From Clostridia bacterium (GTDB lineage: Bacteria > Bacillota > Clostridia > Peptostreptococcales > JAAYPU01): a stretch of 64,000 nucleotides of DNA. Location of the stretch: positions 33,628-97,627 of the forward strand of contig JANQMT010000105.1 of the NCBI GenBank assembly GCA_028279945.1. The letters are read 5' to 3'. Made by a program: the position numbers and the translations under genes. The notes under the pieces were generated by a model. That model was not told where the DNA came from. It did no database searches and was given only the letters and a program-made list of their open reading frames with translations. Below are positions 34,896 to 57,836 of this stretch, piece after piece (positions within the stretch are counted from its first letter, which is position 1; every line of letters begins with the position of its first letter).

Positions 34896-34947
34896 TTAAA
34901 AAATTATATAAGTAATCATTAATTGTAATAATGAGGAGGAGATAAGT

Positions 34948-36582: not shown

Positions 36583-36606
36583 GAAAGTTGTGTAAAGAGG
36601 TGGATC

Positions 36607-38462: not shown

Positions 38463-38551
38463 AGCAGCATAGAATGAGATTTCCAGGCATTTAACGAAAT
38501 TTTATTTTTTATATATGATGACAAAACAAAGCGGATAGGGGGGCGCCTCAG

Positions 38552-40892: not shown

Positions 40893-41013
40893 TAGTTGGA
40901 TCAATAAGTTGGAAGAAGAGCATGAGTAATGAAATGCTATTTATGGGCTAATTTCATTTTGTATTGAAGATTGATAGATATATGAGGTTATGTGCATATA
41001 ATAATGATAGGAG

Positions 41014-41292
41014 ATGAGCGTGTTGTTAATAAAATCCTCTACGTCACTTAAAAATGACTATAATGAAATTTCAAAATATTGTAAAGAGAAAAAAGAACCT
41101 GTTTATTTAACGAAAAATGGAGAAGGGGATTTAGTTGTAATGAGTATAGATGCATTTGAAATGCGAGAAGAAATGCTGGATTTAAGACAGAAATTATTAG
41201 AAGGAGAGGCACAGAGATTATCAGGATGTAAGACTTTTACTATAGACGAAGTTAGAAATCGTTTAAAAGGATTAATGAATGAAGAACTATAA
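41014..41292 (+). CDS. type II antitoxin, Phd/YefM family
   Basis: About 90 aa with a PVYLTKNGEGDLVVMSIDAFE core. Overlaps the toxin gene by 14 nt. GTG 41020 is an alternative start. Confidence 0.75.
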   Translation: MSVLLIKSSTSLKNDYNEISKYCKEKKEPVYLTKNGEGDLVVMSIDAFEMREEMLDLRQKLLEGEAQRLSGCKTFTIDEVRNRLKGLMNEEL

Positions 41293-41590
41293 TGTTAGGT
41301 TTTTACAACCTGCACTTGATGATCTCGAAGAAATCGTATTATTTATTGCAAAGGATAGTATAGAGGATGCATTAAAGTTCCATGACCAAATGATAGAGAA
41401 TGCGCATAAACTCGTAGGATTTTCAAAATTAGGAAGATTGGTACCAAACAAAAAGATTAGTTCATTAGGCTTTAGGGTGTTACAGATATCTTCATATATA
41501 ATTTTTTATAGAGTCATGGATGAAGGTGTTATAATCTATAGGGTCATACATGGTGCAAGAAATTATCCAATGTTATTGAAACACTGTTAA
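41279..41590 (+). CDS. type II toxin, ParE/RelE family
   Basis: 103 aa. N-terminal ALDDLEEI and C-terminal IIYRVIHGARNYP, typical of ParE-like toxins. Confidence 0.75.
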   Translation: MKNYNVRFLQPALDDLEEIVLFIAKDSIEDALKFHDQMIENAHKLVGFSKLGRLVPNKKISSLGFRVLQISSYIIFYRVMDEGVIIYRVIHGARNYPMLLKHC

Positions 41591-41617
41591 CTTTCATGCA
41601 CCCTTCTCGTTTATTTT

Positions 41618-42016
41618 TTATTCACCAGGGGTAACTTCAAATATCGAACCCTCTCGGCGATAACCTAACTTTTTATAATATTCATCCACATCACTCATGA
41701 CATAAATTTCATTGTTTGGGAAATCGGTACATACTCTTTCCATAAGCATGCGTCCGATACTGTTTCCTCGATATGTTTTTTTCACGAGTAAATCATAAAC
41801 ATAAACACCAAAGCCGTCATCGTCTCTACAACGCGCATATCCACACAGTTCATTGCCCTCATATGCCACATAGGTTAAGGAATTAGCAAGAGCAGCCTTG
41901 TATTTTTCAATGCCGGATTCACCCCAATAGCATTCCCAATCAGAACCATCTTCTCGCATCATGTCAAACAAATTTGCTTCATCATTTTTTGTATAGATTC
42001 TTATCTCCATAGACAC
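41618..42016 (-). CDS. GNAT N-acetyltransferase
   Basis: 132 aa with an acetyl-CoA motif region (YRGNSIGRMLMERV) and YYKKLGY. Confidence 0.8.
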   Translation of the reverse strand: MSMEIRIYTKNDEANLFDMMREDGSDWECYWGESGIEKYKAALANSLTYVAYEGNELCGYARCRDDDGFGVYVYDLLVKKTYRGNSIGRMLMERVCTDFPNNEIYVMSDVDEYYKKLGYRREGSIFEVTPGE

Positions 42017-42168
42017 CTCTCAAAATATAATTAATTTTTTGCTTTGTAGTATAAAATAATTACAAAACATCTTACATTTTATATGATAACACAAAAACCC
42101 AATAATTCAAATTTTTTTCAATTCCAGAAAAGAAATGAGAAAGTGATACACATGGGAAAATCATGGTA

Positions 42169-42918
42169 TCACTTTTGTTTTGATTCATCAAAAGTAGCAT
42201 TATTGTCATTGATTGCTTTAATCTTTTGAAGGTATTGAATAATTTCCTCCATAAAGATGAAAAAAACAGTTCTGGATTTTTCGTAAGGCAGCAAATGACT
42301 TGGTTGAGGGTTTTTGGATAACCAGAAAATTCGATCACATTGAGTAAACAGGGATGTATTATACTCTTCAACTACCATTGCTACTTCGCAGCCTTTGGCT
42401 TTGGATGCCTTATATATATTTTCAAAGGAACGAAAAGTACCTGTTACCGTGAATATGACCAATAAGGTTGTATCATTCACCATAGATTCGACAGAAATTT
42501 CGTCCGATAAAGCAACAATCATTTTGTCTGAACAAGTTCGCAATTTATATTCAAAGTATTGGGCACAGATGGCCGATGGCCCAAACCCGAACAGAACAAT
42601 CTTTTCATGTGAATCCATCAGTTCGATAAACTCATCAACCATTGATACGTCAAAATCCTCAATAAATTGTTTGATTCGATTCAGTTCGTTTGAATGCTTA
42701 GTCTGAGGAATTTCTTTCCCGTATAAAAAATCCATATATTGCTTATAGTTATTGAAACCAAGCTTTTTAACATACTTGGAAATTTTAGAAATTGAACAAT
42801 TACATATTTCCGCAGCTTTACTGATACCAAAAGCAGAATTGTTTTGGGAATACATAAGGAGTTTGTCATATATCTGTTTTTCAAAGGAATTTAAGTTACT
42901 AAAATCAATATTTATCAT
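42169..42918 (-). CDS. RpiR/MurR-family transcriptional regulator (HTH + SIS)
   Basis: HTH_6 N-terminus (ISKAAEICNCSISKISKYVKKLGF) and a SIS domain (VLFGFGPSAICAQYF). Divergent from the 43272 operon. Confidence 0.85.
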   Translation of the reverse strand: MINIDFSNLNSFEKQIYDKLLMYSQNNSAFGISKAAEICNCSISKISKYVKKLGFNNYKQYMDFLYGKEIPQTKHSNELNRIKQFIEDFDVSMVDEFIELMDSHEKIVLFGFGPSAICAQYFEYKLRTCSDKMIVALSDEISVESMVNDTTLLVIFTVTGTFRSFENIYKASKAKGCEVAMVVEEYNTSLFTQCDRIFWLSKNPQPSHLLPYEKSRTVFFIFMEEIIQYLQKIKAINDNNATFDESKQK

Positions 42919-43109
42919 AATGTTTACAAGTCCTTTTTTTTATGGATTTTTTAATACTATTTATCTGATTTTAGCATTGACCATTTAGTTTGTAAAGTCA
43001 TCATAATTTCTAACCTGGTATCTATTGTTGACATAAAGCTGAGGAATAAACTTTGTTCATTTAGAAAATTCTAATATATCAGACAACTATTAAAATGGTC
43101 AATTACAAT

Positions 43110-43121
43110 GGAAAATTTTCC
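43110..43121. promoter_or_regulatory. perfect 12-bp palindrome GGAAAATTTTCC (candidate RpiR operator)
   Basis: Self-complementary. A second 11/12 copy lies at 43150..43161. Confidence 0.45.
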
Positions 43122-43149
43122 AATAGTGATGAAGTTCGACAAGATATAT

Positions 43150-43161
43150 AGAAAATTTTCC
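43150..43161. promoter_or_regulatory. palindrome AGAAAATTTTCC (second operator copy) abutting the -35
   Basis: 11/12 match to 43110..43121, 40 bp downstream, immediately 5' of TTGACT. Confidence 0.45.
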
Positions 43162-43190
43162 TTGACTCAGCCAAGTTTGCTTCATATAAT
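43162..43190 (+). promoter_or_regulatory. candidate sigma-A promoter of the flavoenzyme/Etf operon
   Basis: TTGACT, 17-nt spacer, TATAAT. Confidence 0.6.
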
Positions 43191-43271
43191 ATACATAAAT
43201 AAAGAATTGCTTGGTTGTAGGTAAAAGCCAAGTGAAATTTTAAAGACTATTAATTTGGGAGGCAAAGGATA

Positions 43272-44744
43272 GTGACTAGTGATAAAGTAATTGAAAGTTT
43301 GGTGAAACTGCTTTCAGAAGATCAGGTGAATACAAATTATGATGATTTGTATGATGCTTCTGCGGACAGGTACAAAAAATATGCAAAGGCACGCAAGGTG
43401 CTGGATGTGCCATTGCCCACAGCAATTGTATATCCCAATACGGCCCAAGAGGTAAGTGATGTTCTAAAATTCTGTAATGACTATCATATCAATGTGATTG
43501 CAAGAGGCGGAAAAACAGCGACAGAAGGCGGATTGGAAAACTGGAAGGATCTGACGGTGATCATCGATGCTGACAATATGAACAAGATCATTAAGATTGA
43601 TTCATACAATATGCAAGCCACAGTAGAAGCGGGCGTATCGTTGCAATCCTTAGAAGACGAATTGCGAAAAATTGGCTTAACTACAGGGCATTCACCTCAG
43701 TCAAAGCCCGTTGCTAAACTTGGTGGTCTTGTTGCAACGAGAAGTATTGGACAGTTTTCAACTTTATACGGCGGTATAGAAGATATGGTTGTGGGTTTGG
43801 AATGTGTATTTCCTAACGGGCACATTTCAAAAATCAAAAATGTCTGCAGAAGATCCGGTGGACCGGATATTCGTCACATTGCTATCGGAAATGAAGGAAC
43901 CCTTTGTTACATTACAGAGGTTACGGTTAAAACTTTCAGGTATTATCCGGAAAATAATAAATTCTATGGTTATTTAACAAAGGACATTGAAACTGGAATC
44001 AGTATTCTCAGAGAGGTTATGGCCAATGGCTATCGTCCATCTGTAGCAAGAGCTTATTCGGAAGAGGATGCCAAGCAGCATTTTTATCATTTCCATAAGG
44101 ATAAGTGTGTATTGATCTTTATGGCAGAAGGACCAAAGGGTATTGCTGATGCAACTTGCCAAGGCATTGAAGCGGCAGTTGAAAAATTCAAAGACGGCAT
44201 TATTGAACAGGTTGACAGCAGTCTGATTGAGGATTGGTTCAACCACTTGAACTGGTCGCAGCAAGATATTGATGATGAAATTGAAGGCATGATTGAAAAT
44301 GACTACCATGCAGGTTTTACAACTGAGATTTCAGCTGATTGGGAAACCATTCCGGTTATTTACAACAATGTCATCAAAAGAATCAGAGAAGAATTTCCAC
44401 GAGCTCATGATTTGACCATGTTGGGTGGACATTCATCTCACAGCTATATTAATGGAACCAATATGTATTTTGTTTACAATTATGAGATCCGCTGTGCTCC
44501 GGAAGATGAGATGAGGATATACCATCACCCGTTGCAAACCATTATTGTTGAAGAAACACTGAAGCAGGGCGGTTCAATGTGTCATCATCATGGAATTGGA
44601 AAGTATCGAAACCAATGGACGAAAGAAGAACATGGCTCGGCATATTACATGATGGAGAAGCTTAAAGAAGTATTTGATCCCGAGGGTATCATGAATTTCG
44701 GTACCATCTTTCCACAAGAAGATGGTTTGAAATATCAAAAATAA
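43272..44744 (+). CDS. FAD-linked oxidase, alkyl-DHAP-synthase-like (YgcU-like)
   Basis: 490 aa. PCMH-type FAD-binding N-domain (PTAIVYPNTAQEV, ARGGKTAT). The C-terminal motif HHHGIGKYR matches the AGPS-type motif, not the GlcD-type EHGIG. Confidence 0.8.
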   Translation: MTSDKVIESLVKLLSEDQVNTNYDDLYDASADRYKKYAKARKVLDVPLPTAIVYPNTAQEVSDVLKFCNDYHINVIARGGKTATEGGLENWKDLTVIIDADNMNKIIKIDSYNMQATVEAGVSLQSLEDELRKIGLTTGHSPQSKPVAKLGGLVATRSIGQFSTLYGGIEDMVVGLECVFPNGHISKIKNVCRRSGGPDIRHIAIGNEGTLCYITEVTVKTFRYYPENNKFYGYLTKDIETGISILREVMANGYRPSVARAYSEEDAKQHFYHFHKDKCVLIFMAEGPKGIADATCQGIEAAVEKFKDGIIEQVDSSLIEDWFNHLNWSQQDIDDEIEGMIENDYHAGFTTEISADWETIPVIYNNVIKRIREEFPRAHDLTMLGGHSSHSYINGTNMYFVYNYEIRCAPEDEMRIYHHPLQTIIVEETLKQGGSMCHHHGIGKYRNQWTKEEHGSAYYMMEKLKEVFDPEGIMNFGTIFPQEDGLKYQK

Positions 44745-44769
44745 CAAAATAATATTTATGGAGGGGCGT

Positions 44770-46065
44770 ATGAACAAAGAAAATTTAAAAAGGTATTTTC
44801 AGTTCTTACTTGTTGTATTAGCAGCGGGTGCAATTTATCCATTAATTTATTTAAAGACCAATTATCAAGAGACGATTTTAGAAGTCTTTGGTATGACCTT
44901 GCCTCAATTGAATACCATCTATTCAATTTTAGGTATGGTATTTGTTATAGGTTATTTCCCCAGTGGATTGCTCAGCGATAAATTTTCTGCAAAGAAATTG
45001 TTGGGTATTTCACTGCTGGGTACAGCCATAGGTGGTTTTTGGTTTGCGCAAGTACCGAGCTATTCTTCAGTTGTATTGATCTTTTGTATATGGGGAACTT
45101 TTTCAGTTTTCACCTTCTGGAGTTCTCACATGAAGATTGTCAAGATGCTTGCTAAAAAAAGCGAAGAAGGAAAATTCTTTGGAATCCTTGATGGCGGCCG
45201 TGGTGTTGTTGAAGCGGTTCTTGCCAGTGTGGCCTTGGTAATATTCTCAGGAGTTATTGGAACAAGTCTGGAATTTGCCGATAAAAAAGCAGCATTGGTT
45301 GCAGTTATTTATATGTATTCTATTGTACTATTTGTGGCTTCCATCTTGGTATTCATCTTTGTTGAAGATGACAAGAAGCTGTTGGCACGCTCAGAGAACA
45401 AAGACTCTGGAATAAAAGAATCAAAAATGAAACTTTCCGATATTAAAAAATTGCTGAAAAACAAGTACGTCTATCTGCAAGGCGGCATTATTTTCATGGG
45501 GTACTCAGTATTTTGGACGGTTTATTACTTAGGCGGCTTCCTTGAGTCCAATATTGGTATTGACCCTGTAACGGTTAGTACAATTATGGTAGTTGTACTA
45601 TGGATGAGACCGGTTGGTGGTTTTATTGGGGGCTTCTTGGCAGATAAGATTGGTAAAGCCGTAACCATTATGGGTGCGCTTATAGGTGCGGCCATTTGTC
45701 TTGCTGCAGCGGCACTTATGCCTGTGACAGCTTCCCCCACGGCGTTTTCTGTTATAATTGTAATCCTAGGTATATTCCTTTACGCAATTCGAGGAACCTA
45801 TTGGTCATTGCTGGGCAATTCCAAAATAGATGCGGTTATTATGGGCACCGCTATTGGTGTCATATCTTTTATCGGTTACCTGCCGGATATTGTCTTGCCG
45901 CAATTCAATAGTTTCTTGTGGAATACCTTTGGCGGAAATGGCGGTTATAATGCCTATTTCATTTCCAGTGCGGTTCTTGGAATAATAGGTGTTGCTATCA
46001 CCTTGACTTACCGTAAACTTAACCGTAAAGAAGAAGGACTAAAAGAGGAAGAGAAAGTGGCTTAG
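44770..46065 (+). CDS. MFS transporter
   Basis: 12-TM profile. ATG 44770 follows GGAGGGG. Confidence 0.85.
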   Translation: MNKENLKRYFQFLLVVLAAGAIYPLIYLKTNYQETILEVFGMTLPQLNTIYSILGMVFVIGYFPSGLLSDKFSAKKLLGISLLGTAIGGFWFAQVPSYSSVVLIFCIWGTFSVFTFWSSHMKIVKMLAKKSEEGKFFGILDGGRGVVEAVLASVALVIFSGVIGTSLEFADKKAALVAVIYMYSIVLFVASILVFIFVEDDKKLLARSENKDSGIKESKMKLSDIKKLLKNKYVYLQGGIIFMGYSVFWTVYYLGGFLESNIGIDPVTVSTIMVVVLWMRPVGGFIGGFLADKIGKAVTIMGALIGAAICLAAAALMPVTASPTAFSVIIVILGIFLYAIRGTYWSLLGNSKIDAVIMGTAIGVISFIGYLPDIVLPQFNSFLWNTFGGNGGYNAYFISSAVLGIIGVAITLTYRKLNRKEEGLKEEEKVA

Positions 46066-46073
46066 TAAATATT

Positions 46074-46868
46074 ATGAAAATTATATGTATGTTAAAATTT
46101 GTACCGGATGTGGACAACTTTAAATATGATTATGACAGAAATGTCTTGATTAGAGAAAATGTAAAAATGATTCTCAATCCGGATGATGCCAGTGCCTTGG
46201 CTTTTGCTTTGAAGATCAAAGGGAAGAATCTCGATACTTTTATTGAAATTGTCACAATGGCACCGAAATCAGTAATTCCGCTTGTGGAGGATTTACTGAG
46301 GTTGGATGTAGATAAAGCAACAATCATTTCTGACAGGTTATATGCAGGAAGTGACACTTATGTGACCAGTAAAATACTTGCTGGTTATTTAGCAGCGGAG
46401 TCTTTTGATTGCATCCTAACCGGAACCCATGCTTTGGATGGAGATACATCCCATGTGCCATCCCAGTTAGGTGAGCTTCTTAAGTTGAACCAAATGCCTA
46501 ACATCGTTAAAATTGATGATAGGTCCTTCAGTAAAGAACATGCGGTCTTTGAAGTTGACAAAGAAGATACGGTTTTAACTTATGAGATGGCATTGCCGGC
46601 AATCCTGAGTCTTCAAAAGGAGAGCAGCTACAAATTGCCATATGTAAGATTTGATGATTTATCACTGGACGTCAGTCATAAACTGAACATCATCTCAAAT
46701 CTTGAGCTTGCTTTTAATGAAACAAGCGTTGGTATTGAAGGCTCTCTTACTAAGGTAGCAAAAGCATATAATAAGAAGCTTGATAAAAAAAACAAATTGC
46801 TGCTGAAAAACGATGACCAAGGAATTGAAGCTGTCTATTCTTTTTTGAAGGATAAAGGATTGATATGA
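46074..46868 (+). CDS. etfB: electron transfer flavoprotein beta subunit
   Basis: N-terminal MKIICMLKFVPD, LNPDDASALAFALKIK, and GTHALDGDTSHVPSQLGELL (the Etf-beta signature region). Confidence 0.85.
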   Translation: MKIICMLKFVPDVDNFKYDYDRNVLIRENVKMILNPDDASALAFALKIKGKNLDTFIEIVTMAPKSVIPLVEDLLRLDVDKATIISDRLYAGSDTYVTSKILAGYLAAESFDCILTGTHALDGDTSHVPSQLGELLKLNQMPNIVKIDDRSFSKEHAVFEVDKEDTVLTYEMALPAILSLQKESSYKLPYVRFDDLSLDVSHKLNIISNLELAFNETSVGIEGSLTKVAKAYNKKLDKKNKLLLKNDDQGIEAVYSFLKDKGLI

Positions 46869-46869
46869 T

Positions 46870-47811
46870 ATGAAAAAATGTTTGATATATTTGGATACAG
46901 AGAATCTTCAAAATTCAATAGATTTGCTGGAAGTAGCCAATCAAATTTATGATAAAGGCGAAAGTGAAACCTATGGCATTTCCATAAATCAAAAGTGCAG
47001 TGAAGCAGAAGGCGATTTTAACATATTGATCAATGTTGTTGATGAGCAGATAAATAGTTATGATCAAATAGCGGTAACAGATGTTATGGAAGCCTTGCAT
47101 AATGAGCATAACTTTGACAGCATACTCATACCTGCAACTTATTTTGGCAGAATGTTGGCACCAAGACTGGCCATGCGTCTTCATACGGGATTGGTTGCCG
47201 ATGTAACAAGTATTCATCATGAAGACGGCGTGCTTGAAATGACTAGACCCGCATTTAGCGGAAAAATGATGGCGGGAATTGTTAAAAACGGACCGGGGCC
47301 CATTATGATGAGTGTGCGGCAAAATGTATTTTCATATAAAACCAAATATAAAAAAGATACAAAAGTAATCAATTTTAGGCCGGAAAGTTATCAAGACGGT
47401 AAAATAAAACAACTGGGAATAAGAGAGAAACCAAAATCTTATGACATTCGAGTGAGTGAGGTCTTGATATCCGGCGGCGGCGGAACCATAAACAACTTTC
47501 AGCACCTTAAGCTGTTAGCGGATGAATTGAAAGGACAGGTTTCGGCCAGCAGAAGAATTGTGGACAGCGGCATTGCACCTCGACGAATACAGGTGGGACA
47601 ATCCGGTAAAACAGTAAGTCCAAGGCTTTATATAGCCCTGGGGATCAATGGATCATTACAACATATCGAAGGTCTGAAAAATGTAGAATATATTATTTCC
47701 GTAAATAAAAATAAAAATGCGCCTATTTGCAGCCTTTCAGATATTGTTGTCCAAGGTGATGCCATTGAATTTATTGATAAACTGGTAGAAAAAATTAAAA
47801 ACAGCAAATAA
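46870..47811 (+). CDS. etfA: electron transfer flavoprotein alpha subunit
   Basis: Starts 1 nt after the etfB stop. C-terminal FAD motif VGQSGKTVSPRLYIALGINGSLQHIEG. Confidence 0.85.
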   Translation: MKKCLIYLDTENLQNSIDLLEVANQIYDKGESETYGISINQKCSEAEGDFNILINVVDEQINSYDQIAVTDVMEALHNEHNFDSILIPATYFGRMLAPRLAMRLHTGLVADVTSIHHEDGVLEMTRPAFSGKMMAGIVKNGPGPIMMSVRQNVFSYKTKYKKDTKVINFRPESYQDGKIKQLGIREKPKSYDIRVSEVLISGGGGTINNFQHLKLLADELKGQVSASRRIVDSGIAPRRIQVGQSGKTVSPRLYIALGINGSLQHIEGLKNVEYIISVNKNKNAPICSLSDIVVQGDAIEFIDKLVEKIKNSK

Positions 47812-47833
47812 AAATCTTTTAGGAGGAATGACC

Positions 47834-48613
47834 ATGAATATTATGGATTTTAATATGGATTTCTTTTCATTGAAAGGCAAAAATGCAGTTGTAACTGGAG
47901 GAAACAGCGGCTTAGGTCAAGCTTTTTCTACTGCTTTAGCAAAAGCCGGTGCAAATGTAATGGCAGCCAGCATTATGGAAGATGATAGTGAAACCAGAGA
48001 AATGGTTGAATCCTGCGGCGTGGCATATAAATATGTTTATGCGGACATTACGGCTGAAGGTGAATGTAAAAGAGTTGTGGATGAATGTGTCAATACATGG
48101 GGAAGTATCGACATTTTAGTAAATTGTGCAGGTATTTGCATCAACATTCAAGATGTAACACAATTTACTAGAAAAGAGTGGGACAAAATGGTTGCGGTGA
48201 ATTTAACGGCTGCATTTGAAATGACCCATGAAGCCTGTAAATACATGATCAAACAACAAAGCGGAAAAGTTGTCAATATTGCATCTTTATTCTCTTTTCT
48301 TGGAGGGCAATGGTCACCGGCTTATGCCGCTACAAAACATGGGATAGTAGGTCTTACAAAATCAATGTGCGATGAATTGGCGCAATTTAATATTCAGGTC
48401 AACGCCATTGCACCGGGATACTTCGCTACAAAGCTGACAGAAAAAACCAGAAGTGATGAAAAGAGAAATGCAGAGATATTGTCTCATATTCCGGCAAATC
48501 GATGGGGATATGTAGCAGATCTTATGGGTGCATGCGTGTTTTTATCAAGTGATGCAGCCAACTATGTAAATGGAACAGTTCTAACAGTGGATGGCGGTTA
48601 TTTAATGAGATAA
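47834..48613 (+). CDS. SDR-family oxidoreductase, KduD/2-deoxy-D-gluconate 3-dehydrogenase-like
   Basis: TGGNSGLGQA cofactor motif, NCAG, and the YAATKHG catalytic YxxxK. Confidence 0.88.
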   Translation: MNIMDFNMDFFSLKGKNAVVTGGNSGLGQAFSTALAKAGANVMAASIMEDDSETREMVESCGVAYKYVYADITAEGECKRVVDECVNTWGSIDILVNCAGICINIQDVTQFTRKEWDKMVAVNLTAAFEMTHEACKYMIKQQSGKVVNIASLFSFLGGQWSPAYAATKHGIVGLTKSMCDELAQFNIQVNAIAPGYFATKLTEKTRSDEKRNAEILSHIPANRWGYVADLMGACVFLSSDAANYVNGTVLTVDGGYLMR

Positions 48614-48658
48614 AACCTCATTATAAATCATCTTGATCATAGGCATAGGGGAGGACAT

Positions 48659-50101
48659 ATGATGAATCAATATATTGTAGCAATTGATGGCGGGACACAA
48701 AGTACGAAAGTAGCCATTTTTGACATATTTGGGACTGAGGTTTGCTCACATACGGTTAAGCTTCGAGAAATCCAATTGTCTGAGAATGAAAGAGCAGAGC
48801 ATCCCGATGATGACTTATGGGACAGCTTGAAACTGGCTTGCAATGAAATGTTCAAAAAATTTAATGGGGTTAAAAAAGATATCATTGGGGTTGGATTAGG
48901 CTCAATCAGATGCTGCCGCGCTTTGGTAAAGGAGAATGGTGATCTGGCCTCTCCTGTGCAAAGCTGGATGGATCTCAGACTATCCAGGCCTTATGAACAT
49001 GAAGACGACAGCGTAAGGTATGTGACCACAACGACGGGGTATTTGACCTATAGGTTGACAGGGGAGACAAAGGATACCAGGGCAAATTACGTAGGCCCTT
49101 GGCCCATAGACCCCATGACTTTGGACTGGTTTGAGGATCAAGAAAAATTTGATGCATTTACAACACCAAGAGAAATGCTATTTGATCTAGTAGATCCTTC
49201 AACCATATTGGGGACAATAACAGAAAAAGCCAGTGAAGCCACAGGCATTCCCGTTGGAGTTCCTGTTGTGGCTACGGCCAATGACAAAGCAGTGGAAGGC
49301 TTAGGAGCAGGTCTTGTAAATGATGGAACCGTTCTTGTATCTTTAGGAACGTATATCACCTCAATGATGGTTGGTAAAGATAACAATTCCAATACAGTAA
49401 ACTATTGGAGTAATCCCGGTGCCACAAAAGGGGAATATCTATATGAAAGCAGCGGCATTCGAAGAGGGATGGTTACGGTTACATGGATTAAGGAACTTTT
49501 AGGCAGCGATATCGAAATTGAAGCTGCAAAACGAGACATGACACCGGAAGGATATTTGAATTTATTGGCTTCGGAAGCTCCCGTAGGATGTGACGGCTTA
49601 TATACGGTATTGAACTGGTTGGCTCGTCCTGACAAATTATATGAGCGGGGAATGATGATAGGGTTTAATGGAACACACAAGGGACCCCATATGTTCCGTT
49701 CTATACTTGAAGGCATTGCCTTCACTATGAAAAATTATGCTCAGGCCATGTGCGATGAATGCGGTATCGCTTTATCCAATATCATTGTCAGCGGAGGCGG
49801 CTCAAACGGTGAGCTTTTTATGCAAATATTTGCCGATGTCTTCGGTGTACCGGCCCGTCGAAATGTTGTCAATGGTTCCGCAAGCATGGGTGCAGCAATA
49901 TGTACAGCTTTAGCTCTCGGTGTTTATAAGGACAGGCAAGAAGCCATAGAGCATATGGTGAAACGGCGGGATACTTTTATGCCCATTGAAAAAAGTGTTA
50001 AGCTGTATAAAGAAATAAACGAAAATGTATACAAGCACATTACGTCATATACGGATGAGCTTTTGAAGAAATCTCACGCCATTTTTGAAGAAAAGATATA
50101 A
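48659..50101 (+). CDS. FGGY-family carbohydrate kinase
   Basis: N-terminal AIDGGTQSTK and C-terminal GGGSNGELFMQIFADVFG motifs. Confidence 0.88.
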   Translation: MMNQYIVAIDGGTQSTKVAIFDIFGTEVCSHTVKLREIQLSENERAEHPDDDLWDSLKLACNEMFKKFNGVKKDIIGVGLGSIRCCRALVKENGDLASPVQSWMDLRLSRPYEHEDDSVRYVTTTTGYLTYRLTGETKDTRANYVGPWPIDPMTLDWFEDQEKFDAFTTPREMLFDLVDPSTILGTITEKASEATGIPVGVPVVATANDKAVEGLGAGLVNDGTVLVSLGTYITSMMVGKDNNSNTVNYWSNPGATKGEYLYESSGIRRGMVTVTWIKELLGSDIEIEAAKRDMTPEGYLNLLASEAPVGCDGLYTVLNWLARPDKLYERGMMIGFNGTHKGPHMFRSILEGIAFTMKNYAQAMCDECGIALSNIIVSGGGSNGELFMQIFADVFGVPARRNVVNGSASMGAAICTALALGVYKDRQEAIEHMVKRRDTFMPIEKSVKLYKEINENVYKHITSYTDELLKKSHAIFEEKI

Positions 50102-50155
50102 GGCTTATTTTAAAAAGAAGTAATAAAACTTTTCTCTTTCTTAGGAGGTGCTATT

Positions 50156-51727
50156 GTGGTAAATCAAAATTTTAATAGCGAAAGAAATTCAAAGAAACAA
50201 AAACTCAGGCTTGCGGTGTTTTTTCCGGCATTCATTTTATTACTTCTTACTATTCTGTTCAACTTTGTGAATGAGGAAGCTTTCTTAAATGCTACAACCA
50301 TTGCGAAGGATTTCATGGTTGTTGATATGGGGTGGGTATTTAGTATAGCAGGCGTTTTGAGTCTGATTCTCATTGTTATCGTCTATGTGTCACCCCTTGG
50401 GAATGTGAAACTTGGAGGCCCTGATGCCAAGCCTCTGTTGAAAAAAAAGACCTGGTTTTCTGTAACCCTTTGTACGACCATTGCAGCAGGTATCTTGTTT
50501 TGGGGAACTGCCGAACCCATGTGGCATTTGGCATACCCGCCGGAATCTCTTGGGATTGAACCCATGTCTCCTGAGGCTGCAAAATTTGCCATGGAAACCA
50601 TGTTTTTGCACTGGACCTTTGTGCCTTATGCGTTATATGCGGTTCCCACCATTGTTTTTGGTTTTGCTTATTATAATATGAGACGCTCCTTTAGTGTCGG
50701 TTCACAAATCGCACCAATTGTAACCCCTGGCAGGCAGAAGAGATTCAATGCTTTCATTGATGCCGTGGTTCTTTTCACAGTGGCAGCGGGTATATCCTCG
50801 TCTTTTGGAACAGCAGTCATGAATATGGGCGGTGGTATGAATGCCCTTTTTGGAGTGAACAACGATAAATTCCTTTGGATTATCATAACGGTTATTGGTA
50901 CGGCAGCATTTATTATTTCATCCAGTACGGGTTTAATGAAAGGGATAAGAATTTTATCGGATATAAATGTATATCTTTATTATATAATCATTGCTGTATT
51001 GTTAGTTTTAGGACCCTCCGTTTACTTTTTTAGCATGGGGACTGAAGCTTTTGGTGGTTTTTTGGACAATATTTTTAGTAAAGCCCTTTTTACCGGTGCT
51101 GCCGCAGGGGATACATGGGCATCAGGGTGGACCATGTTTTACTGGTCTAATTGGATGGCTTGGGCACCTGTATCAGCCGTATTTCTCGCAAGGATTGCCT
51201 ATGGTTACAAAATCAGAGAAGTTGTTATGATGAATTTTGTTATTCCAAGTATATTCAGTACCATTTGGATGACCATATTATCCGGAACCACAATCAATTT
51301 CCAATTAACCGGTAAGGTGGATATCTTGGCTAAAATGAATGAACAGGGTTCAGCAGCTGCAGCCTATACGGTGCTGGGTGAATTGCCATTGTCAGGATTG
51401 ATTATCGGCATTTATCTCATTGCTGTCATAATATCCTTCATTACGGCCACCGACTCTACAACCAACGCTATGGCCAGCATCTGTACGACAGGAATCACTG
51501 ATGGCAAGCAGGAAGCCCCGTTATTGATTAAAGTGGCTTGGGGTATGATTGTTGGTGCAGTGGCGCTTGTATTCATTGCAACATTGGGCTTGGACGGCAT
51601 TAAAATGATGTCTTATCTGGGAGGATTTCCGGCACTGTTCCTCGGCCTTCTCAGCTTAGTATCCTTGATGGTCATTATGAGAAAACCAGAAAAATATGAT
51701 GTGTATTCCAAAAATAAAGAAGCATGA
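50156..51727 (+). CDS. BCCT-family transporter (betaine/carnitine/choline type)
   Basis: Signature WTMFYWSNWMAWAPVSAVFLARIAYGYKIREV. GTG start 9 nt after AGGAGG. 54-nt gap to the kinase gene with no hairpin. Confidence 0.9.
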   Translation: MVNQNFNSERNSKKQKLRLAVFFPAFILLLLTILFNFVNEEAFLNATTIAKDFMVVDMGWVFSIAGVLSLILIVIVYVSPLGNVKLGGPDAKPLLKKKTWFSVTLCTTIAAGILFWGTAEPMWHLAYPPESLGIEPMSPEAAKFAMETMFLHWTFVPYALYAVPTIVFGFAYYNMRRSFSVGSQIAPIVTPGRQKRFNAFIDAVVLFTVAAGISSSFGTAVMNMGGGMNALFGVNNDKFLWIIITVIGTAAFIISSSTGLMKGIRILSDINVYLYYIIIAVLLVLGPSVYFFSMGTEAFGGFLDNIFSKALFTGAAAGDTWASGWTMFYWSNWMAWAPVSAVFLARIAYGYKIREVVMMNFVIPSIFSTIWMTILSGTTINFQLTGKVDILAKMNEQGSAAAAYTVLGELPLSGLIIGIYLIAVIISFITATDSTTNAMASICTTGITDGKQEAPLLIKVAWGMIVGAVALVFIATLGLDGIKMMSYLGGFPALFLGLLSLVSLMVIMRKPEKYDVYSKNKEA

Positions 51728-51805
51728 TTTCAGAGTTAATATAATCTTTACGCCAAAAAGAATAGGATAGGGGTTAAGGGAAATAATAGTTGTAAGTCAA
51801 TTTAA

Positions 51806-51854
51806 CAAAAAAGTCTTGAGTAAAAAGATATTTTACCAAGACTTTTTTGTTTTA
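51806..51854 (+). terminator. rho-independent terminator ending the operon
   Basis: CAAAAAAGTCTTG / CAAGACTTTTTTG 13-bp stem followed by a T-run. Confidence 0.8.
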
Positions 51855-51934
51855 TGTGTATGGTATAAGGAGGACTTGGTTTTGTAGTGGGGAGAATTAA
51901 CCAAAGGAGAAATAAATAAGAGCATCAAATCGTA

Positions 51935-52636
51935 CTACAGTGCAGACTTGATTTCAATATCTTCTACCATACTTTTAAGTTCACTTGTGAATTCTTGTTT
52001 TCCTTCTGCAGTTACTTCCATTACGCATTGTAACATGGGCATGTTTCCGTTGTGAGTGTGTTTTATGCCCAAACCGGTGGCTGCAGCCTGAATATAATCA
52101 AAGAAACTACAGTAAGGAATTAATTCGGGAATATCATTTACTGCTTGAAATTTCCTTACAGCACACTCATTGATGTCAAGAACATACCCTTTTTGTGGAC
52201 ATGTATCTCGACATGTCCATACATAATTATCTTTATATTCTCTTTTTTGAGTCTCATCTCCAAATTTCTTCAGTTTGTTAATCCAAAATTTAGTAGTTGT
52301 AGTAAAACCAATTATCTTTCTAATGAATTTAGGAATCCGCTCAAACATTCTATCGGATAGTTTATATAAAAGTCTAACACTTGTTCTAATTGGATAGCCA
52401 TTGGCCTTCAAAGCCTTGTAAAATGCAATAAATGTAACATTGAGATTCATAATAAATGACATGAGATTACGCTTTCCGATGTCAATTAACTGAACCTTCT
52501 CAATATTAGCATAGCCTTCGTCAATGATCTTCTGTGCTTCTTCTGAAGATTTAACTTCTGTTTCAATGACATCTTTATTCCTGCTGACAAAATTATTATA
52601 GGTTTTTTGAAATTTAGCAAGTTCTTTAGTCTTCAT
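51935..52636 (-). CDS. hypothetical protein, Cys-containing C-terminal half (possibly ATC-hydrolase-like)
   Basis: 233-aa ORF with no competitor. The region CRDTCPQKG..INECAVRKF..IPELIPYCSFFDY resembles my memory of the L-2-amino-thiazoline-4-carboxylate hydrolase family. Unverified. Confidence 0.5.
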   Translation of the reverse strand: MKTKELAKFQKTYNNFVSRNKDVIETEVKSSEEAQKIIDEGYANIEKVQLIDIGKRNLMSFIMNLNVTFIAFYKALKANGYPIRTSVRLLYKLSDRMFERIPKFIRKIIGFTTTTKFWINKLKKFGDETQKREYKDNYVWTCRDTCPQKGYVLDINECAVRKFQAVNDIPELIPYCSFFDYIQAAATGLGIKHTHNGNMPMLQCVMEVTAEGKQEFTSELKSMVEDIEIKSAL

Positions 52637-52922
52637 ATAAATCCTCCTCTCTAATTGGTATAAAAATCAAAATAACAATCTTAAAATATGACTTAACGAA
52701 AAGTAAGCTGCCAGCTAAATGAAAAGTTACAGTTTTAATGATTGATCTTTTGTTACAAATAACTTACCTTCCGTTAAGTAAAATATATTATAATTTTCGG
52801 TTTATGTCAATATGAATGCTAAAAGAATTTAAAACAACATAAAAAAAGTTTGACAACTTATTATAATGGTCTGCTAACCCATATAATAGAGATATCGTGA
52901 CATCAGATAAATCCTTAGTTTT

Positions 52923-52950
52923 TGAATTGTTATATTGAATTGTCACAATT
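52923..52950 (+). promoter_or_regulatory. cluster of TGAATTGT half-sites (two direct, one inverted)
   Basis: tgaattgt tatat tgaattgt cacaatt, including the palindrome AATTGTCACAATT. Lies 65 bp upstream of the PRD-regulator start. Confidence 0.3.
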
Positions 52951-53014
52951 AGTTTCTTCTTCAGGTGAAAACACTTAACGTTGTACGGTTTGAATTTTCA
53001 AAATATAATTTGAG

Positions 53015-55060
53015 TTGAGAAATGGGGTGAGAAACATATTCTATTTAAATAAACGTCAGCAGCAAATCTTAGAATTTCTGATATTAAAAAAAGACAAAAT
53101 CAATTATGAGGAAATAAGTAAAAGGTTTCTTGTTTCAAAAAGGACAATAAGAAATGATTTGGATCTCATTGGTGATTTTTTGTCTTCAAGAAATATTAAA
53201 TTGTCTCGTGATAATGCAGGGGCATTTTATATTGAAAATGCTAATGCCGATCAGCTGGCTGAGTTAATGTCTTCCGATGCAATCCTGATTTTAAATCAAA
53301 ACGAACGTCAGCAGTTAATAATATTGTCCTTACTTGAAAAAGAGCATCCTTTAACCATCGAAGATATCTCCAATTTTCTCGGTGTCAGTTACTCAACCGT
53401 GGCAAACGATATAAAAAATATTCATGGTTTACTTACGGAATTGGGATTAACCATTTTCAAGAAACCCAATTACGGAATCAGTCTTAGCGGTGATGAGAAA
53501 ACAATAAGAGCATCCATTATTAAAATAATAACATCCAATGTAGATTCAAGACTTTTAAACGGGCTGATAAATTGGCGAGATTTTTCATTAAATAACAAAG
53601 TGATGGATACTTTTTTTGAGATTGATTCTCTGAGAGAAATCAGAAGCTTTTTCTACGAAATGTGCCTGAATTATCGCTGTGGTTTCCCAGATAGTGACAG
53701 TATTTTATTGGTTTTGGGGTTAGCCATAAAATTAAAAAGAATAAGTATTGGCAGGGTACTTAACAATAATCTTTCAACAGAAAATTCTGAAGAGGTTACA
53801 AATAATGATCTATATTTTAAAATGGCCGAATTCGTGGCGCAAAGAGTAGAAGCCAGTTACGGTATCAAGATGAGTGAATATGAATTAAATGATTTTGTTG
53901 TGTTAATAAAAAGCACTCGTTTTATATTCTTTGATGATTTTGAAATAGCAGATTACCAGCAATACTTAGCACATAGCATGAAAAAAGCAGAGTTGGTTAC
54001 TTGGGGCGTCCTTAAAAAGATGGAAGCTTTGTATGGAATTGACTTGATGAATAACCATCAACTCATTACATCTTTAAAGAATCATCTGGCTATATCATTA
54101 TATCGAGTGGAGAACCGTGTTTTAATTTATAATCCTCTTACGGATGAGATAAAGCAAAATTATCCATATTTATTCAATTTAATCAGTTTCATGATTGAAG
54201 ATTTAATGAAAACCTATGGCTATATAAAAATGCCGGATGATGAGATCAGCTATATCGTCATTTATCTTCAGGTAGCTTTTGAAAATATGAAGAAAAATAA
54301 GCTTCCCCCAAAGCCCAAAGTATTAGTAATCTGCAACACATCCAATATAATAGCAAACTACCTTAGAGTTAAGTTAGAAAAAGAGTTCCCGGAATTAGAC
54401 TTAATCGGTCCTGTACTTTTAGGAATAGGTGATAACAATGTTATAAACAACAACCGGCCTGAATTGATCATCTCTACTGAACCCTTAAAATCAGCAGAAT
54501 GCCCGGTATGTATAATTAGTCCCTTAGTTACTGAAAGCGATATCGATAAAATTAATACAGCGCTGACCGATTTGGCAAAATCAGATGGGTTTAAAGGAGT
54601 GAATCAATACGTGCTTAAAGATTTATTACGCCGAGATGCAATAAAGCTTAGAGTTAAAGCAGAAAATTGGGAAGAAGCCATAAGAAAATCCGGTGAAATG
54701 TTGTTGAAGCTGGACTATATTGAAGAAAAATATATAGATGCTATGATTCAAACGGTCCATAAACTTGGTCCCTATATCGTTATTGCCCCGGGAATAGCTT
54801 TAGCCCATGCCCGACCCGAAGAGGGCGTCATTAAAACAAGTTTTTCTTTAATTACTTTAGAAGATCCGGTCCAATTTGGAAACAAAGACAATGATCCGGT
54901 AAATCTGGTGGTAACAATAGCTGCGCTTGATCACAACAGTCATATTAAAGCTATTAGTGAACTCATTGATATCATCGGAAACAAAGAAAAGTATAAAATA
55001 ATAACTTCTTCCAATGACCTCAATGAGGTTTTTGAATTGCTTTATGGAACGTTGGTGTGA
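53015..55060 (+). CDS. PRD-domain transcriptional activator (MtlR/LicR/ManR type): HTH-HTH-PRD-PRD-EIIB-like-EIIA
   Basis: 681 aa. Two N-terminal wHTH modules, two PRD regions, an EIIB-like segment (KVLVICNTSN) and a C-terminal PTS EIIA type-2 domain (GIALAHARPEEG). The start codon is non-ATG and uncertain. Confidence 0.85.
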   Translation: MRNGVRNIFYLNKRQQQILEFLILKKDKINYEEISKRFLVSKRTIRNDLDLIGDFLSSRNIKLSRDNAGAFYIENANADQLAELMSSDAILILNQNERQQLIILSLLEKEHPLTIEDISNFLGVSYSTVANDIKNIHGLLTELGLTIFKKPNYGISLSGDEKTIRASIIKIITSNVDSRLLNGLINWRDFSLNNKVMDTFFEIDSLREIRSFFYEMCLNYRCGFPDSDSILLVLGLAIKLKRISIGRVLNNNLSTENSEEVTNNDLYFKMAEFVAQRVEASYGIKMSEYELNDFVVLIKSTRFIFFDDFEIADYQQYLAHSMKKAELVTWGVLKKMEALYGIDLMNNHQLITSLKNHLAISLYRVENRVLIYNPLTDEIKQNYPYLFNLISFMIEDLMKTYGYIKMPDDEISYIVIYLQVAFENMKKNKLPPKPKVLVICNTSNIIANYLRVKLEKEFPELDLIGPVLLGIGDNNVINNNRPELIISTEPLKSAECPVCIISPLVTESDIDKINTALTDLAKSDGFKGVNQYVLKDLLRRDAIKLRVKAENWEEAIRKSGEMLLKLDYIEEKYIDAMIQTVHKLGPYIVIAPGIALAHARPEEGVIKTSFSLITLEDPVQFGNKDNDPVNLVVTIAALDHNSHIKAISELIDIIGNKEKYKIITSSNDLNEVFELLYGTLV

Positions 55061-55063
55061 AAA

Positions 55064-56086: not shown

Positions 56087-56191
56087 ACAAATTGTATTGA
56101 ATTAAAAACGGCGAGAATTGTTTTATGATGACATTTTTTAATAACAGCTGTCAAAGTGCAATGGAGAATAATGATAGAAAGGAGGAGGAAT

Positions 56192-56491
56192 ATGAAAGTT
56201 TTAGCTGTTTGCGGATTAGGAATAGGTTCCAGCGTCATTCTAAAAATCAGTGTCGGTAAAATTCTGGATGACATTGGCATTAAGGATTACAGTATCGATG
56301 TGGCAGACATTGGTACAGCGAAGTCCATTCCTTTTGATATGGCCGTTACAAATGTAGAGTTGGCTGATGTATTAAAAAAAGGAATTCCGTTAGAGAAGCA
56401 TTTGAGGGTAGTAACCGTCAATAATTTTGTGGATAAAGATGAAATGAAATCTAAGATTTCGGCATGTCTAAAAGAGATTGGCGAAATCTGA
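56192..56491 (+). CDS. PTS ascorbate-family EIIB component (UlaB/SgaB-like)
   Basis: MKVLAVCGLGIGSS with the phospho-Cys. ATG 56192 follows AAGGAGGAGG. Confidence 0.85.
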   Translation: MKVLAVCGLGIGSSVILKISVGKILDDIGIKDYSIDVADIGTAKSIPFDMAVTNVELADVLKKGIPLEKHLRVVTVNNFVDKDEMKSKISACLKEIGEI

Positions 56492-56538
56492 GGGGGGCTT
56501 CACACAAAAATTATAAATATTAAGGAGTGTGACATTGA

Positions 56539-57816: not shown

Positions 57817-57836
57817 TTGGTTGAAGGTTGAAGACG

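Follow-up and report, generated by a model that had tools for sequence, protein, structure and literature searches.

Gene content of the operon

The window analysed here is a stretch of 64,000 nucleotides from the genome of a Clostridia bacterium (contig JANQMT010000105.1 of assembly GCA_028279945.1), and our subject is an operon within it, at positions 42169–51727, together with the regulator gene that diverges from it. The operon (Table 1) encodes a flavin adenine dinucleotide (FAD)-linked dehydrogenase that resembles AGPS, the alkyl-dihydroxyacetone-phosphate (alkyl-DHAP) synthase, and is called the oxidase below, a carrier of the major facilitator superfamily (MFS), both subunits of an electron transfer flavoprotein (ETF), a short-chain dehydrogenase/reductase (SDR), an FGGY-family kinase and a betaine/choline/carnitine transporter (BCCT). 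The pathway to which these proteins belong is a genuine orphan, very widespread and horizontally mobile, that combines a glp-like regulon with an ETF-coupled dehydrogenase of the VAO family. We propose, and would give the proposal as a whole an even chance, that the operon is inducible and serves the catabolism of a small, hydroxylated, glycerol-like solute by the logic of the glp genes.

Table 1. Positions in the window of the genes and predicted signals of the operon.
Feature	Position	Strand	Remarks
RpiR/MurR-type regulator (HTH_6 + SIS)	42169–42918	-	divergent from the operon; weak Pfam SIS and HTH_6 matches
Operator candidate 1, perfect palindrome GGAAAATTTTCC	43110–43121	.	motif conserved in regulator-oxidase spacers
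Operator candidate 2, near-copy AGAAAATTTTCC	43150–43161	.	40 nt from copy 1; abuts the -35 box
Sigma-70-like promoter, TTGACT-17-TATAAT	43162–43190	+	11/12 consensus matches, best in the region; consensus match only
AGPS-like FAD-linked dehydrogenase, 490 aa	43272–44744	+	FAD_binding_4 + FAD-oxidase_C; putative YgcU orthologue
MFS carrier, YqcE-like	44758–46065	+	MFS_1 domain; TIGR00893 match
EtfB (ETF small subunit), group-2-like	46074–46868	+	Pfam/NCBIfam and PDB matches
EtfA (ETF large subunit), 313 aa	46870–47811	+	ETF + ETF_alpha domains
KduD/IdnO-like SDR	47828–48613	+	adh_short; putative YgcW orthologue
FGGY kinase	48659–50101	+	FGGY_N/C; putative YgcE orthologue
BCCT carrier, cluster-specific subfamily	50156–51727	+	BCCT domain PF02028
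Intrinsic terminator, ~21-bp hairpin + T-tract	51804–51858	+	ΔG -22.4 kcal/mol; hairpin itself 51804–51851

A preliminary description of this DNA, made from its letters and open reading frames (ORFs), had listed the eight genes, and their coordinates and spacing were reproduced exactly by our ORF map. From the oxidase to the BCCT gene the intergenic gaps are 13, 8, 1, 16, 45 and 54 nt. Pfam and NCBIfam agree with all of the family names given at that time, in the case of the regulator weakly. The last and widest gap, described as free of a hairpin, indeed holds no stable one (its best fold has -7.4 kcal/mol) and contains an AGGAGG Shine-Dalgarno sequence ahead of the BCCT gene. The strong terminator reported downstream of this gene is also real; it was found by folding, a consensus terminator scanner having missed it. 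The predicted promoter precedes the start of the oxidase gene by about 80 nt, and an Rfam scan of positions 41000–53500 revealed no riboswitch or leader.

Relation to the ygc cluster of Escherichia coli

The operon had been presented as a counterpart of the ygc cluster of E. coli K-12 (ygcN-O-P-Q-R-S-U-W / yqcE-ygcE). This cluster exists, and every gene in it is annotated as putative. It contains the FixC/X-like ygcN and ygcO, ygcP for a GlpP-like antiterminator, the ETF genes ygcQ and ygcR, the MFS genes ygcS and yqcE, and ygcU, ygcW and ygcE for an FAD dehydrogenase, an SDR and a kinase, respectively. The likeness holds for the enzyme trio and fails for the ETF and for YgcS. In BLASTP comparisons the oxidase is 55% identical to YgcU over 484 of its 490 residues (E = 0), and over their full lengths the SDR and the kinase are 61% and 49% identical to YgcW and YgcE. 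The ranking of NCBIfam profiles for the E. coli proteins mirrors that for the proteins of the window: NF005390 gives 332.7 bits with the SDR and 347.5 bits with YgcW, and XylB stands above LsrK both for the kinase and for YgcE. The profile matches of the SDR and the kinase all fall below the equivalog cutoffs, those of the kinase below every one. The MFS protein, which had been equated with YgcS, gave no BLASTP match to it and instead matched YqcE (27% identity over the whole length, 6e-43), and TIGR00893 is matched by both. YgcS has a profile of the aromatic-acid / sugar-porter type (NCBIfam) and is without a counterpart in this operon.

For the ETF subunits the comparison gave 20–25% identity, that is 20% between EtfB and YgcR over 91 residues (E = 3e-4) and 25% between EtfA and YgcQ, and YgcRQ has none of the group-2 motifs discussed below, including DGDT and RPxF. 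EtfBA can therefore not be regarded as YgcRQ type. By these measures the three enzymes appear to be orthologues of YgcU, YgcW and YgcE, and the electron-transfer module does not; the operon's own EtfBA would be a lineage-specific solution to electron disposal and not a sign of shared ancestry with the E. coli ETF.

The earlier statement that no substrate is assigned to the ygc cluster agrees with the K-12 annotation and with our literature search. The search, which covered the ygc genes, yqcE, related gene combinations and erythritol catabolism, returned no assigned function, and its relevant yield consisted only of reports on a CRP site in the spacer between ygcW and yqcE. This spacer was bound by CRP in genomic SELEX (systematic evolution of ligands by exponential enrichment; PMC3105977), and a CRP site within it was predicted by PhyloScan (PMC1794230). 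The presence of this site supports a carbon-catabolic role. As to the enzymes themselves, the closest solved structure is KduD for the SDR and the autoinducer-2 (AI-2) kinase LsrK (101 bits) for the kinase, a pair of neighbours that fits small linear keto-diol or diol substrates.

Distribution and the minimal unit

Relatives of the oxidase were sought with a motif pattern and tblastn in one genome per GTDB species, and at least 583 were confirmed. The best 80 of these, with 73–83% oxidase identity, were retrieved as loci (numbered with the prefix L), and components were counted in the 44 loci with enough flanking DNA, which come mostly from anaerobes. The gene order recurs in 80 of the 80 loci, and the gene set was confirmed in 13 further loci reached by plasmid and reverse look-ups. 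Because the order recurs throughout, the arrangement is far beyond chance. Among the 44 loci the SDR and the kinase are present in all, the ETF in 43, an RpiR homologue at the same position in 42 and a YqcE-like MFS protein in 30. A BCCT gene is found in 16 and an ATP-binding cassette (ABC) system of the OpuC type in 14, so that either one accompanies 30 clusters; a SurE phosphatase occurs in 6 and a GlpP-like antiterminator in 3. FixC or FixX is present in none of the 44, and the window likewise has no homologue of ygcN or ygcO, as the preliminary description had noted. When the neighbouring ORFs of the 80 loci were clustered, no recurrent aldolase, isomerase, lyase or trimethylamine-utilisation gene emerged, only transporters and the SurE-type phosphatase.

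The conservation across phyla claimed for the operon had been understated. The best 80 loci are drawn from Clostridia, Erysipelotrichia, Enterococcus, Bacillaceae, Halanaerobium, Spirochaetes, Desulfobacterota, Chloroflexi and Alphaproteobacteria, Fusobacteria also fall within the 73–83% range, and plasmid-borne copies are present in Ilyobacter, Enterococcus, Bacillus, Priestia, Vibrio and Streptomyces. Oxidases this similar in different phyla, and the plasmid-borne copies, are signs that the cluster has spread horizontally.

Among the further loci inspected, those of Ilyobacter, Vibrio, Bacillus, Streptomyces and Halobacillus likewise have the complete trio. In aerobic or facultative carriers (Mesobacillus, Neobacillus, B. 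thuringiensis, Vibrio pelagius, Streptomyces and Halobacillus) it occurs without an ETF, from which it follows that the minimal functional unit is the three enzymes with a regulator and a carrier. The electron outlet thus varies with lifestyle: anaerobes have an ETF of their own, E. coli has YgcRQ with YgcNO, and aerobes have nothing dedicated.

Some loci have additional genes. On a plasmid of Streptomyces sp. NBC_01562 (L087, 4608–8068) the trio is flanked by fae, for a formaldehyde-activating enzyme, and by a gene for a succinate-semialdehyde-type aldehyde dehydrogenase, a single case that hints at a C1 or aldehyde by-product. Anaeromicrobium sediminis (L090/L091, NIBG01000004.1) has two BCCT paralogues, a GlpP-like gene and, in tandem, a second oxidase-EtfB-EtfA set, so that the redox module has been duplicated in this lineage specifically. 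In Halanaerobium saccharolyticum (L095, 11464–12780) the SurE gene is followed by one for an FrhB/FdhB-like protein that has 4Fe-4S motifs and might be a further partner in electron transfer, and in Halanaerobium polyolivorans (L039) by an uncharacterised ORF of 445 aa.

The AGPS-like flavoenzyme

The HHHGIGKYR motif reported for the oxidase is present at residues 438–446, and Pfam PF01565 (FAD_binding_4) and PF02913 (FAD-oxidase_C) both match the protein. Its classification as AGPS type, and not GlcD/LctD type, agrees with comparison to solved structures, in which AGPS scores 178 bits, glycolate oxidase 101, LctD 77 and D-lactate dehydrogenase 76. In the alignment to the AGPS structure 4bby, residues R260, Y399 and H438–440 of the oxidase fall on Arg419, Tyr578 and His615–617, and they are invariant in an alignment of oxidases that includes YgcU. 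It is plausible from this correspondence that the active site handles a DHAP-like moiety. The alignment starts at residue 47 of the oxidase and residue 204 of AGPS, leaving 46 residues ahead of the FAD domain compared with about 200 in AGPS, and most of the AGPS N-terminal region is without a counterpart in the oxidase. We take this region to form the gating helix and the lipid (fatty-alcohol) tunnel of AGPS, and since its counterpart is lacking a lipid substrate seems unlikely.

These data bear on the possibility that the operon serves genuine ether-lipid (alkyl-DHAP) synthesis, or else encodes a lactate or glycolate dehydrogenase-ETF of the LctBCD type, either of which we consider scarcely credible. 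AGPS is, to be sure, the best solved homologue, with its catalytic residues kept, the names in use at JGI and in KEGG style are alkyl-DHAP synthase, and the layout of an oxidase gene beside EtfBA is like that of lctBCD. However, besides the missing N-terminal region, the operon has no acyltransferase or other lipid genes. As for lactate, the bit score of LctD is less than half that of AGPS, and a kinase, an SDR and a phosphosugar-type regulator make no sense for this substrate; moreover, no lactate permease or racemase is found among the neighbours in the 80 loci. On the basis of the oxidase scores and the gene context, a true AGPS and an LctBCD-type lactate system were both rejected.

On the direction of the reaction, the strongest argument is the way in which the electron outlet (an ETF, YgcRQ with FixCX-like proteins, or none) tracks lifestyle. 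It speaks for the oxidase carrying out a net oxidation by two electrons, a dehydrogenation, and against the redox-neutral exchange of AGPS.

The electron transfer flavoprotein

A possibly bifurcating ETF had been suggested for this operon, and sequence comparisons support its assignment to that lineage. For both subunits the top five PDB matches are bifurcating ETFs: CarDE, the Bcd-Etf of Clostridioides difficile, the ETFs of Acidaminococcus fermentans and Thermotoga maritima, and LctBC. EtfB scores 78–114 bits against CarD, C. difficile EtfB, A. fermentans EtfB, the T. maritima protein and LctB, compared with 30–35 bits against the non-bifurcating ETFs of Paracoccus denitrificans and Methylophilus methylotrophus. 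The bifurcating FAD of group-2 ETFs is associated with the motifs RPxFGG, of which the Arg is essential, RxGV and GxxSPTxV, and these were compared as given in that source (PMC10734219). In EtfA the first motif reads RPAFSG, keeping the essential Arg. EtfB has DGDT, as in CarD, and reads RENV in place of RxGV (Gly to Asn) and GSLTKV in place of GxxSPTxV (Pro to Leu). Because these deviations are conserved across the whole cluster family, the ETFs of the cluster would form a distinct subclade, although they group with the group-2 (bifurcating) lineage. EtfA, with 313 aa, is without the N-terminal ferredoxin domain present in LctC (418 aa) and in CarE.

An ETF of this kind might also work in the opposite direction, with electrons passing from NADH (reduced nicotinamide adenine dinucleotide, NAD) through a bifurcating ETF to a flavoenzyme that acts on an activated onium compound, either reducing it or cleaving it reductively, while energy is conserved by the reduction of ferredoxin. 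Models would be CaiA/FixABCX with crotonobetaine and CarCDE with caffeyl-coenzyme A (caffeyl-CoA), and the BCCT protein would be a CaiT-like antiporter of substrate and product. AGPS expels a leaving group from C1 of its DHAP moiety, which speaks for such a cleavage, and the combination of BCCT with ETF mirrors E. coli caiT-fixAB. It also counts in favour that most characterised group-2 ETF complexes (Bcd, Car) run reductively (PMC6085437). Nevertheless we regard this respiratory role as very improbable. Aerobic carriers keep the oxidase with neither an ETF nor another donor, as fits an oxidase or dehydrogenase direction, and a kinase that consumes ATP, together with CRP control in E. coli, fits carbon catabolism.

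Regulator and operator

The Pfam matches of the regulator are weak, with 26.5 bits for SIS (cutoff 25) and 25.4 bits for HTH_6 (cutoff 28.3); the RefSeq annotation of its Enterococcus gilvus orthologue is MurR/RpiR. That it is a DNA-binding protein is further supported by a conserved palindrome. The motif GGAAAATTTTCC, with two mismatches or fewer, is present in 64 of 65 regulator-oxidase spacers from at least six phyla (drawn from the window and from L002–L081, L083, L084, L086 and L088), against a background of 0.18 per kb, and in most loci two copies lie 39–41 nt apart. The Ilyobacter, Vibrio, B. thuringiensis and E. gilvus loci have the motif as well. It is absent from the Streptomyces loci, which themselves have no RpiR protein, and from the ygcW-yqcE spacer of E. 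coli (L001, 10275–10592). We presume this motif to be the RpiR operator.

In several lineages an antiterminator of the GlpP type, which responds to glycerol-3-phosphate (G3P), is added to the RpiR protein or substituted for it. This is so for E. coli (YgcP), Enterococcus, Blautia/Schaedlerella, Streptomyces, Halobacillus and Anaeromicrobium. Regulators with the RpiR-SIS architecture and those of the GlpP type both sense phosphorylated small molecules, and this shared property points to the product of the kinase as the inducer.

Another possibility is a scheme of epimerisation and trapping, as in the L-idonate (IdnD/IdnO/IdnK) or DprE1/DprE2 systems. In it the flavoenzyme would oxidise a hydroxy acid or polyol at one stereocentre, the KduD/IdnO-like SDR would re-reduce this centre to give the epimer, with NADH regenerated through the ETF, and the kinase would trap the epimer as a phosphate ester of central metabolism. 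The scheme is attractive in that three enzymes suffice with neither aldolase nor isomerase, and its closed redox loop would account for a private ETF. The SDR is nearest to KduD and gluconate-5-dehydrogenase models, and the MFS protein resembles symporters of D-galactonate and of the anion:cation symporter (ACS) type. We nonetheless think it improbable. The AGPS-type site and the GlpP and SIS regulators suggest that the substrate of the flavoenzyme is phosphorylated, and therefore that the kinase acts before the oxidase, and the onium-type carriers are left without explanation.

The carriers

The MFS protein of the window matches weakly an anion:cation-symporter / organophosphate-antiporter profile. 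The BCCT protein matches PF02028 with 397.7 bits over positions 1–484 of 485 and had been described as an unexplained extra. We find instead that it belongs to a subfamily that is diagnostic of the cluster. Its transmembrane helix (TM) 8 reads FYWSNW...AYGYKIRE, compared with the canonical FYW-x-W-W...SRGR(S/T)IRE. Thirty cluster-linked BCCTs from at least five phyla are 35–83% identical among themselves, yet have a common signature: Asn in place of BetP Trp373 in 29 (FYW-x-N-W) and Val in the other, RGR replaced in all, mostly by YGY and in a few by a form with H or Q second, and, in TM3, TLCTTIAAG where BetP has a glycine-rich stretch. BetP, CaiT, BetT and YeaV all have the canonical WW/RGR form. 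Most residues of the BetP aromatic box are kept.

The association also holds in reverse, since 7 of 7 BCCT homologues on long contigs (66–79% identity) lie directly beside an SDR-FGGY-oxidase cluster; these come from Halobacillus salinarum, Anaeromicrobium sediminis (two paralogues), Alkalibacter saccharofermentans, Halanaerobium saccharolyticum and two other genomes. With one to a few such genes per genome, a BCCT or OpuC gene would be expected by chance beside an estimated few per cent of clusters, and the observed figure is 30 of 44. These carrier genes vary in position. They follow EtfA in Blautia and Schaedlerella, adjoin the trio where it is without an ETF (Mesobacillus, Vibrio, Halobacillus) and, in E. 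gilvus, share an operon with genes for a second SDR and a GlpP-like protein. From its signature and linkage the BCCT protein appears to be a dedicated carrier of the system, and OpuC-type ABC systems stand in for it in other lineages. The binding protein of E. gilvus scores 322 bits against B. subtilis OpuCC, and at what we take to be the four positions of the OpuCC aromatic cage it has Y/F/Y/Y. A cation-pi box probably serves to recognise the substrate, or else a co-substrate or product, which is yet unlike the classical betaines.

Two observations on these carriers stand apart. Many operons carry MFS and BCCT genes together, for which our proposal does not account. A gene for a SurE-family phosphatase follows the BCCT gene in L092 (10574–11353), L093 (10608–11399) and L095 (10591–11403), overlapping the BCCT stop codon in the first two and beginning 3 nt past the BCCT gene in the third, which suggests translational coupling of the two; SurE is present also in L002, L005, L009, L010, L018, L039, L050 and L081.

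The carriers may be read differently if the operon is a plain polyol pathway for erythritol or another C4–C5 alditol, resembling EryA/EryB of Brucella, in which a flavoenzyme with an ETF replaces the quinone-linked GlpD-type dehydrogenase. The FGGY kinase would then make a polyol phosphate, the SDR would handle an isomer, and the BCCT and OpuC systems would carry an uncharged osmolyte polyol or simply osmoprotectants. We judge this rather unlikely. In its favour, SDR and FGGY kinase are the classical alditol pair, the Asn and Thr-Thr substitutions make the BCCT site more polar, and many carriers of the cluster are halophilic or marine, where polyols are osmolytes. One carrier of the cluster, H. 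polyolivorans, is reported to use meso-erythritol, glycerol and G3P for growth and not betaine, and to be without known ery genes or erythritol kinases (PMC10536098); its phenotype is a weak lead to the substrate. On the other side, no isomerases of tetruloses or tetroses are conserved in the cluster, and erythritol routes need three isomerases. To our knowledge no member of the BCCT or OpuAC families carries an uncharged polyol, and the OpuC-like binding protein is aromatic at the positions that presumably form an onium cage. Erythritol in particular was rejected as the substrate, since the required isomerases are lacking and E. coli is not a native erythritol user; a preprint describes E. 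coli engineered for this use (bioRxiv 10.1101/2022.10.03.510612).

A proposed pathway

Our preference for glycerol-like catabolism rests on the parts list, which corresponds one to one with glpP-F-K-D. The solute would be taken up by the dedicated BCCT protein, the YqcE-like MFS protein or both, and elsewhere by an OpuC-type ABC system. The KduD-like SDR would carry out an NAD-linked oxidoreduction at a secondary alcohol beside a CH2OH group, and the FGGY kinase would phosphorylate this terminal CH2OH to give an intermediate like G3P. The intermediate would be the inducer, sensed by the SIS domain of the RpiR protein at the GGAAAATTTTCC operators or, in some other bacteria, by a GlpP-type antiterminator. 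The AGPS-like flavoenzyme would oxidise it to a DHAP-like product, in a couple too positive for NAD alone (compare G3P/DHAP and lactate/pyruvate). Here, in an anaerobe, the electrons would pass to the dedicated group-2 ETF, and NAD+ would be reduced with the help of reduced ferredoxin, by analogy with Ldh-EtfAB. The types of transporter suggest that the solute bears an onium or zwitterionic head group, probably the former. The gene set with its orthology and conservation, the operator motif, the lineage of the ETF and the specificity signature of the transporter are seen in the sequences; we infer in which order the steps follow one another, that of the SDR and kinase above all, what kind of solute is used and the confurcation. 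The preliminary description had guessed at a polyol, a ketose or a glycerol-derived compound, which is plausible.

Several considerations weigh against this proposal. We know of no familiar natural compound that has both an onium head and a glycerol-like diol and for which just these three enzymes would be required. The E. coli and Streptomyces variants are without onium-type carriers, and the commonest carrier is the MFS protein with its anion-symporter-like profile, which leaves room for an anionic or neutral substrate. With Asn for Trp and Thr-Thr in TM3, the BCCTs of the cluster may bind no classical quaternary amine. Both the role and the position of the SDR step are guesses, the ETF departs from three group-2 motifs (RENV, GSLTKV and RPAFSG) and its second FAD is only predicted, and the SurE-type phosphatase coupled to the BCCT gene in several relatives lies outside a simple catabolic scheme.

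Other candidate substrates were considered on chemical grounds only. Carnitine, choline, glycerophosphocholine, 2,3-dihydroxypropane-1-sulfonate (DHPS), tetronates and AI-2 were set aside, as each leaves at least one universal component unexplained, be it the kinase, the ETF or the onium carriers, or would need a phosphodiesterase that is lacking.

A bolder version of the glycerol-like proposal, which we rate as distinctly improbable, is that the cluster degrades an as yet unnoticed class of C1-substituted glycerols, X-CH2-CHOH-CH2OH, in which X bears an onium group or is otherwise a good leaving group. Such compounds might be left over from the head groups of betaine or ether lipids, or be glycerol-linked osmolytes. 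The kinase and the SDR would produce an X-substituted DHAP, in the reverse of the eukaryotic alkylglycerol-kinase and acyl-DHAP-reductase steps, and the AGPS-like enzyme would remove X by covalent flavin-N5 chemistry to leave DHAP, coupled to a new bifurcating ETF complex. If true, this would mean a new class of bifurcation partner, a new cleavage of C-O or C-N bonds and a first function for YgcU, YgcW and YgcE.

Surroundings of the operon

The window is chromosomal DNA of about 37% GC that also encodes enolase, H+-pyrophosphatase, RNase R, PcrA and LigA. The closest named relatives of several operon proteins belong to Vallitaleaceae / Petrocella, which are marine anaerobic Clostridia. An A-tract upstream of the terminator hairpin makes the terminator potentially bidirectional, serving also a convergent ORF (51935–52636, minus strand, 233 aa) that has no Pfam or NCBIfam match and falls in no recurrent cluster of neighbouring ORFs from the 80 loci. 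Just downstream, at 53015–58472, is a separate sugar system with an Mga/DeoR-type activator containing PRD and EIIA domains, an Ldh_2-family dehydrogenase, an EIIC of the galactitol/ascorbate type of phosphotransferase system and a putative cyclase. Upstream of the operon, at 32849–39631, lie genes for an ABC transporter of the Opp/Dpp type (ATPase, SBP_bac_5 and two permeases) and, after them, for an M24 prolidase-like peptidase and a cyclophilin; together they look like a peptide-uptake unit. At 23078–25962 a TRAP (tripartite ATP-independent periplasmic) DctM permease adjoins a fused serine dehydratase (alpha + beta).

Significance

The predicted pan-phylum operator GGAAAATTTTCC and the putative BCCT subfamily are newly defined here. 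The module is carried by gut Enterococcus, Blautia and Dorea, by E. coli, by marine and hypersaline anaerobes, and by Vibrio, Bacillaceae and Streptomyces. Solving the pathway would assign about ten y-genes of E. coli, and the nutrient revealed, possibly an abundant osmolyte or a derivative of a lipid head group, would link carbon cycling in marine, hypersaline and gut environments. An AGPS-type flavoenzyme could also join the short list of partners of bifurcating ETFs. The operator, the signature of the BCCT subfamily, the OpuC-like binding protein, which is suited to ligand screening, and the culturable carriers of the cluster offer experimental handles. Among these carriers are Halobacillus salinarum and H. 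litoralis, Vallitalea okinawensis, Enterococcus raffinosus and E. gilvus, Ilyobacter polytropus, Vibrio pelagius, Anaeromicrobium sediminis and E. coli.

Comparison with known systems

The E. coli ygc cluster shares with the window the trio, apparently orthologous, a YqcE-like MFS protein and the pairing of the flavoenzyme with an ETF. It differs in having an ETF of the YgcRQ lineage, the FixC/FixX-like YgcNO, YgcS as an additional MFS protein of the sugar-porter type and a GlpP-like antiterminator where the window has RpiR, and in lacking a BCCT carrier.

The glpP-glpF-glpK-glpD genes of B. subtilis have, one for one, a transporter, an FGGY kinase, an FAD dehydrogenase of the phosphorylated product and a sensor of the phospho-intermediate, and GlpP homologues accompany the window-type cluster in six lineages. 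The window-type kinase belongs, however, to the YgcE clade and not to GlpK, and the dehydrogenase has the VAO/AGPS fold and not that of GlpD/DAO. Moreover, the operon of the window has an extra SDR, active carriers (BCCT, OpuC, MFS) in place of a channel and an ETF in place of a quinone. The erythritol pathway of Brucella likewise begins with an FGGY-type kinase (EryA) and continues with a flavin-dependent oxidation of the polyol phosphate (EryB), but EryB is GlpD-like and quinone-linked, and the three isomerases needed there are absent here.

Among ETF-linked systems, the confurcating Ldh-EtfAB (LctBCD) of Acetobacterium woodii also has a gene for an FAD_binding_4 / FAD-oxidase_C dehydrogenase beside a group-2 EtfBA, in an anaerobe and without FixCX, and likely shares the purpose of coupling a high-potential alcohol oxidation to NAD+ with ferredoxin. 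The differences lie in the oxidase, which is of the AGPS and not the LctD type, in the absence of the LctC ferredoxin domain from EtfA, in the three deviating motifs of the ETF, and in the kinase, SDR and carriers that the window operon adds. In the carnitine respiration of E. coli, caiTABCDE-fixABCX, a BCCT carrier is again combined with an ETF dedicated to one flavoenzyme. There, unlike here, the chemistry is that of CoA esters with a reductase of the acyl-CoA-dehydrogenase type, and CaiT has the canonical WW/RGR form that the cluster BCCTs lack.

Finally, AGPS itself (EC 2.5.1.26) is the best solved homologue of the oxidase and has the same fold. Its Arg419, Tyr578 and HHH loop, with which it handles the DHAP moiety, have conserved equivalents in the oxidase. 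The oxidase departs from it in being without most of the N-terminal region, in having a dedicated external electron acceptor, and in a context of soluble catabolism instead of lipid synthesis.

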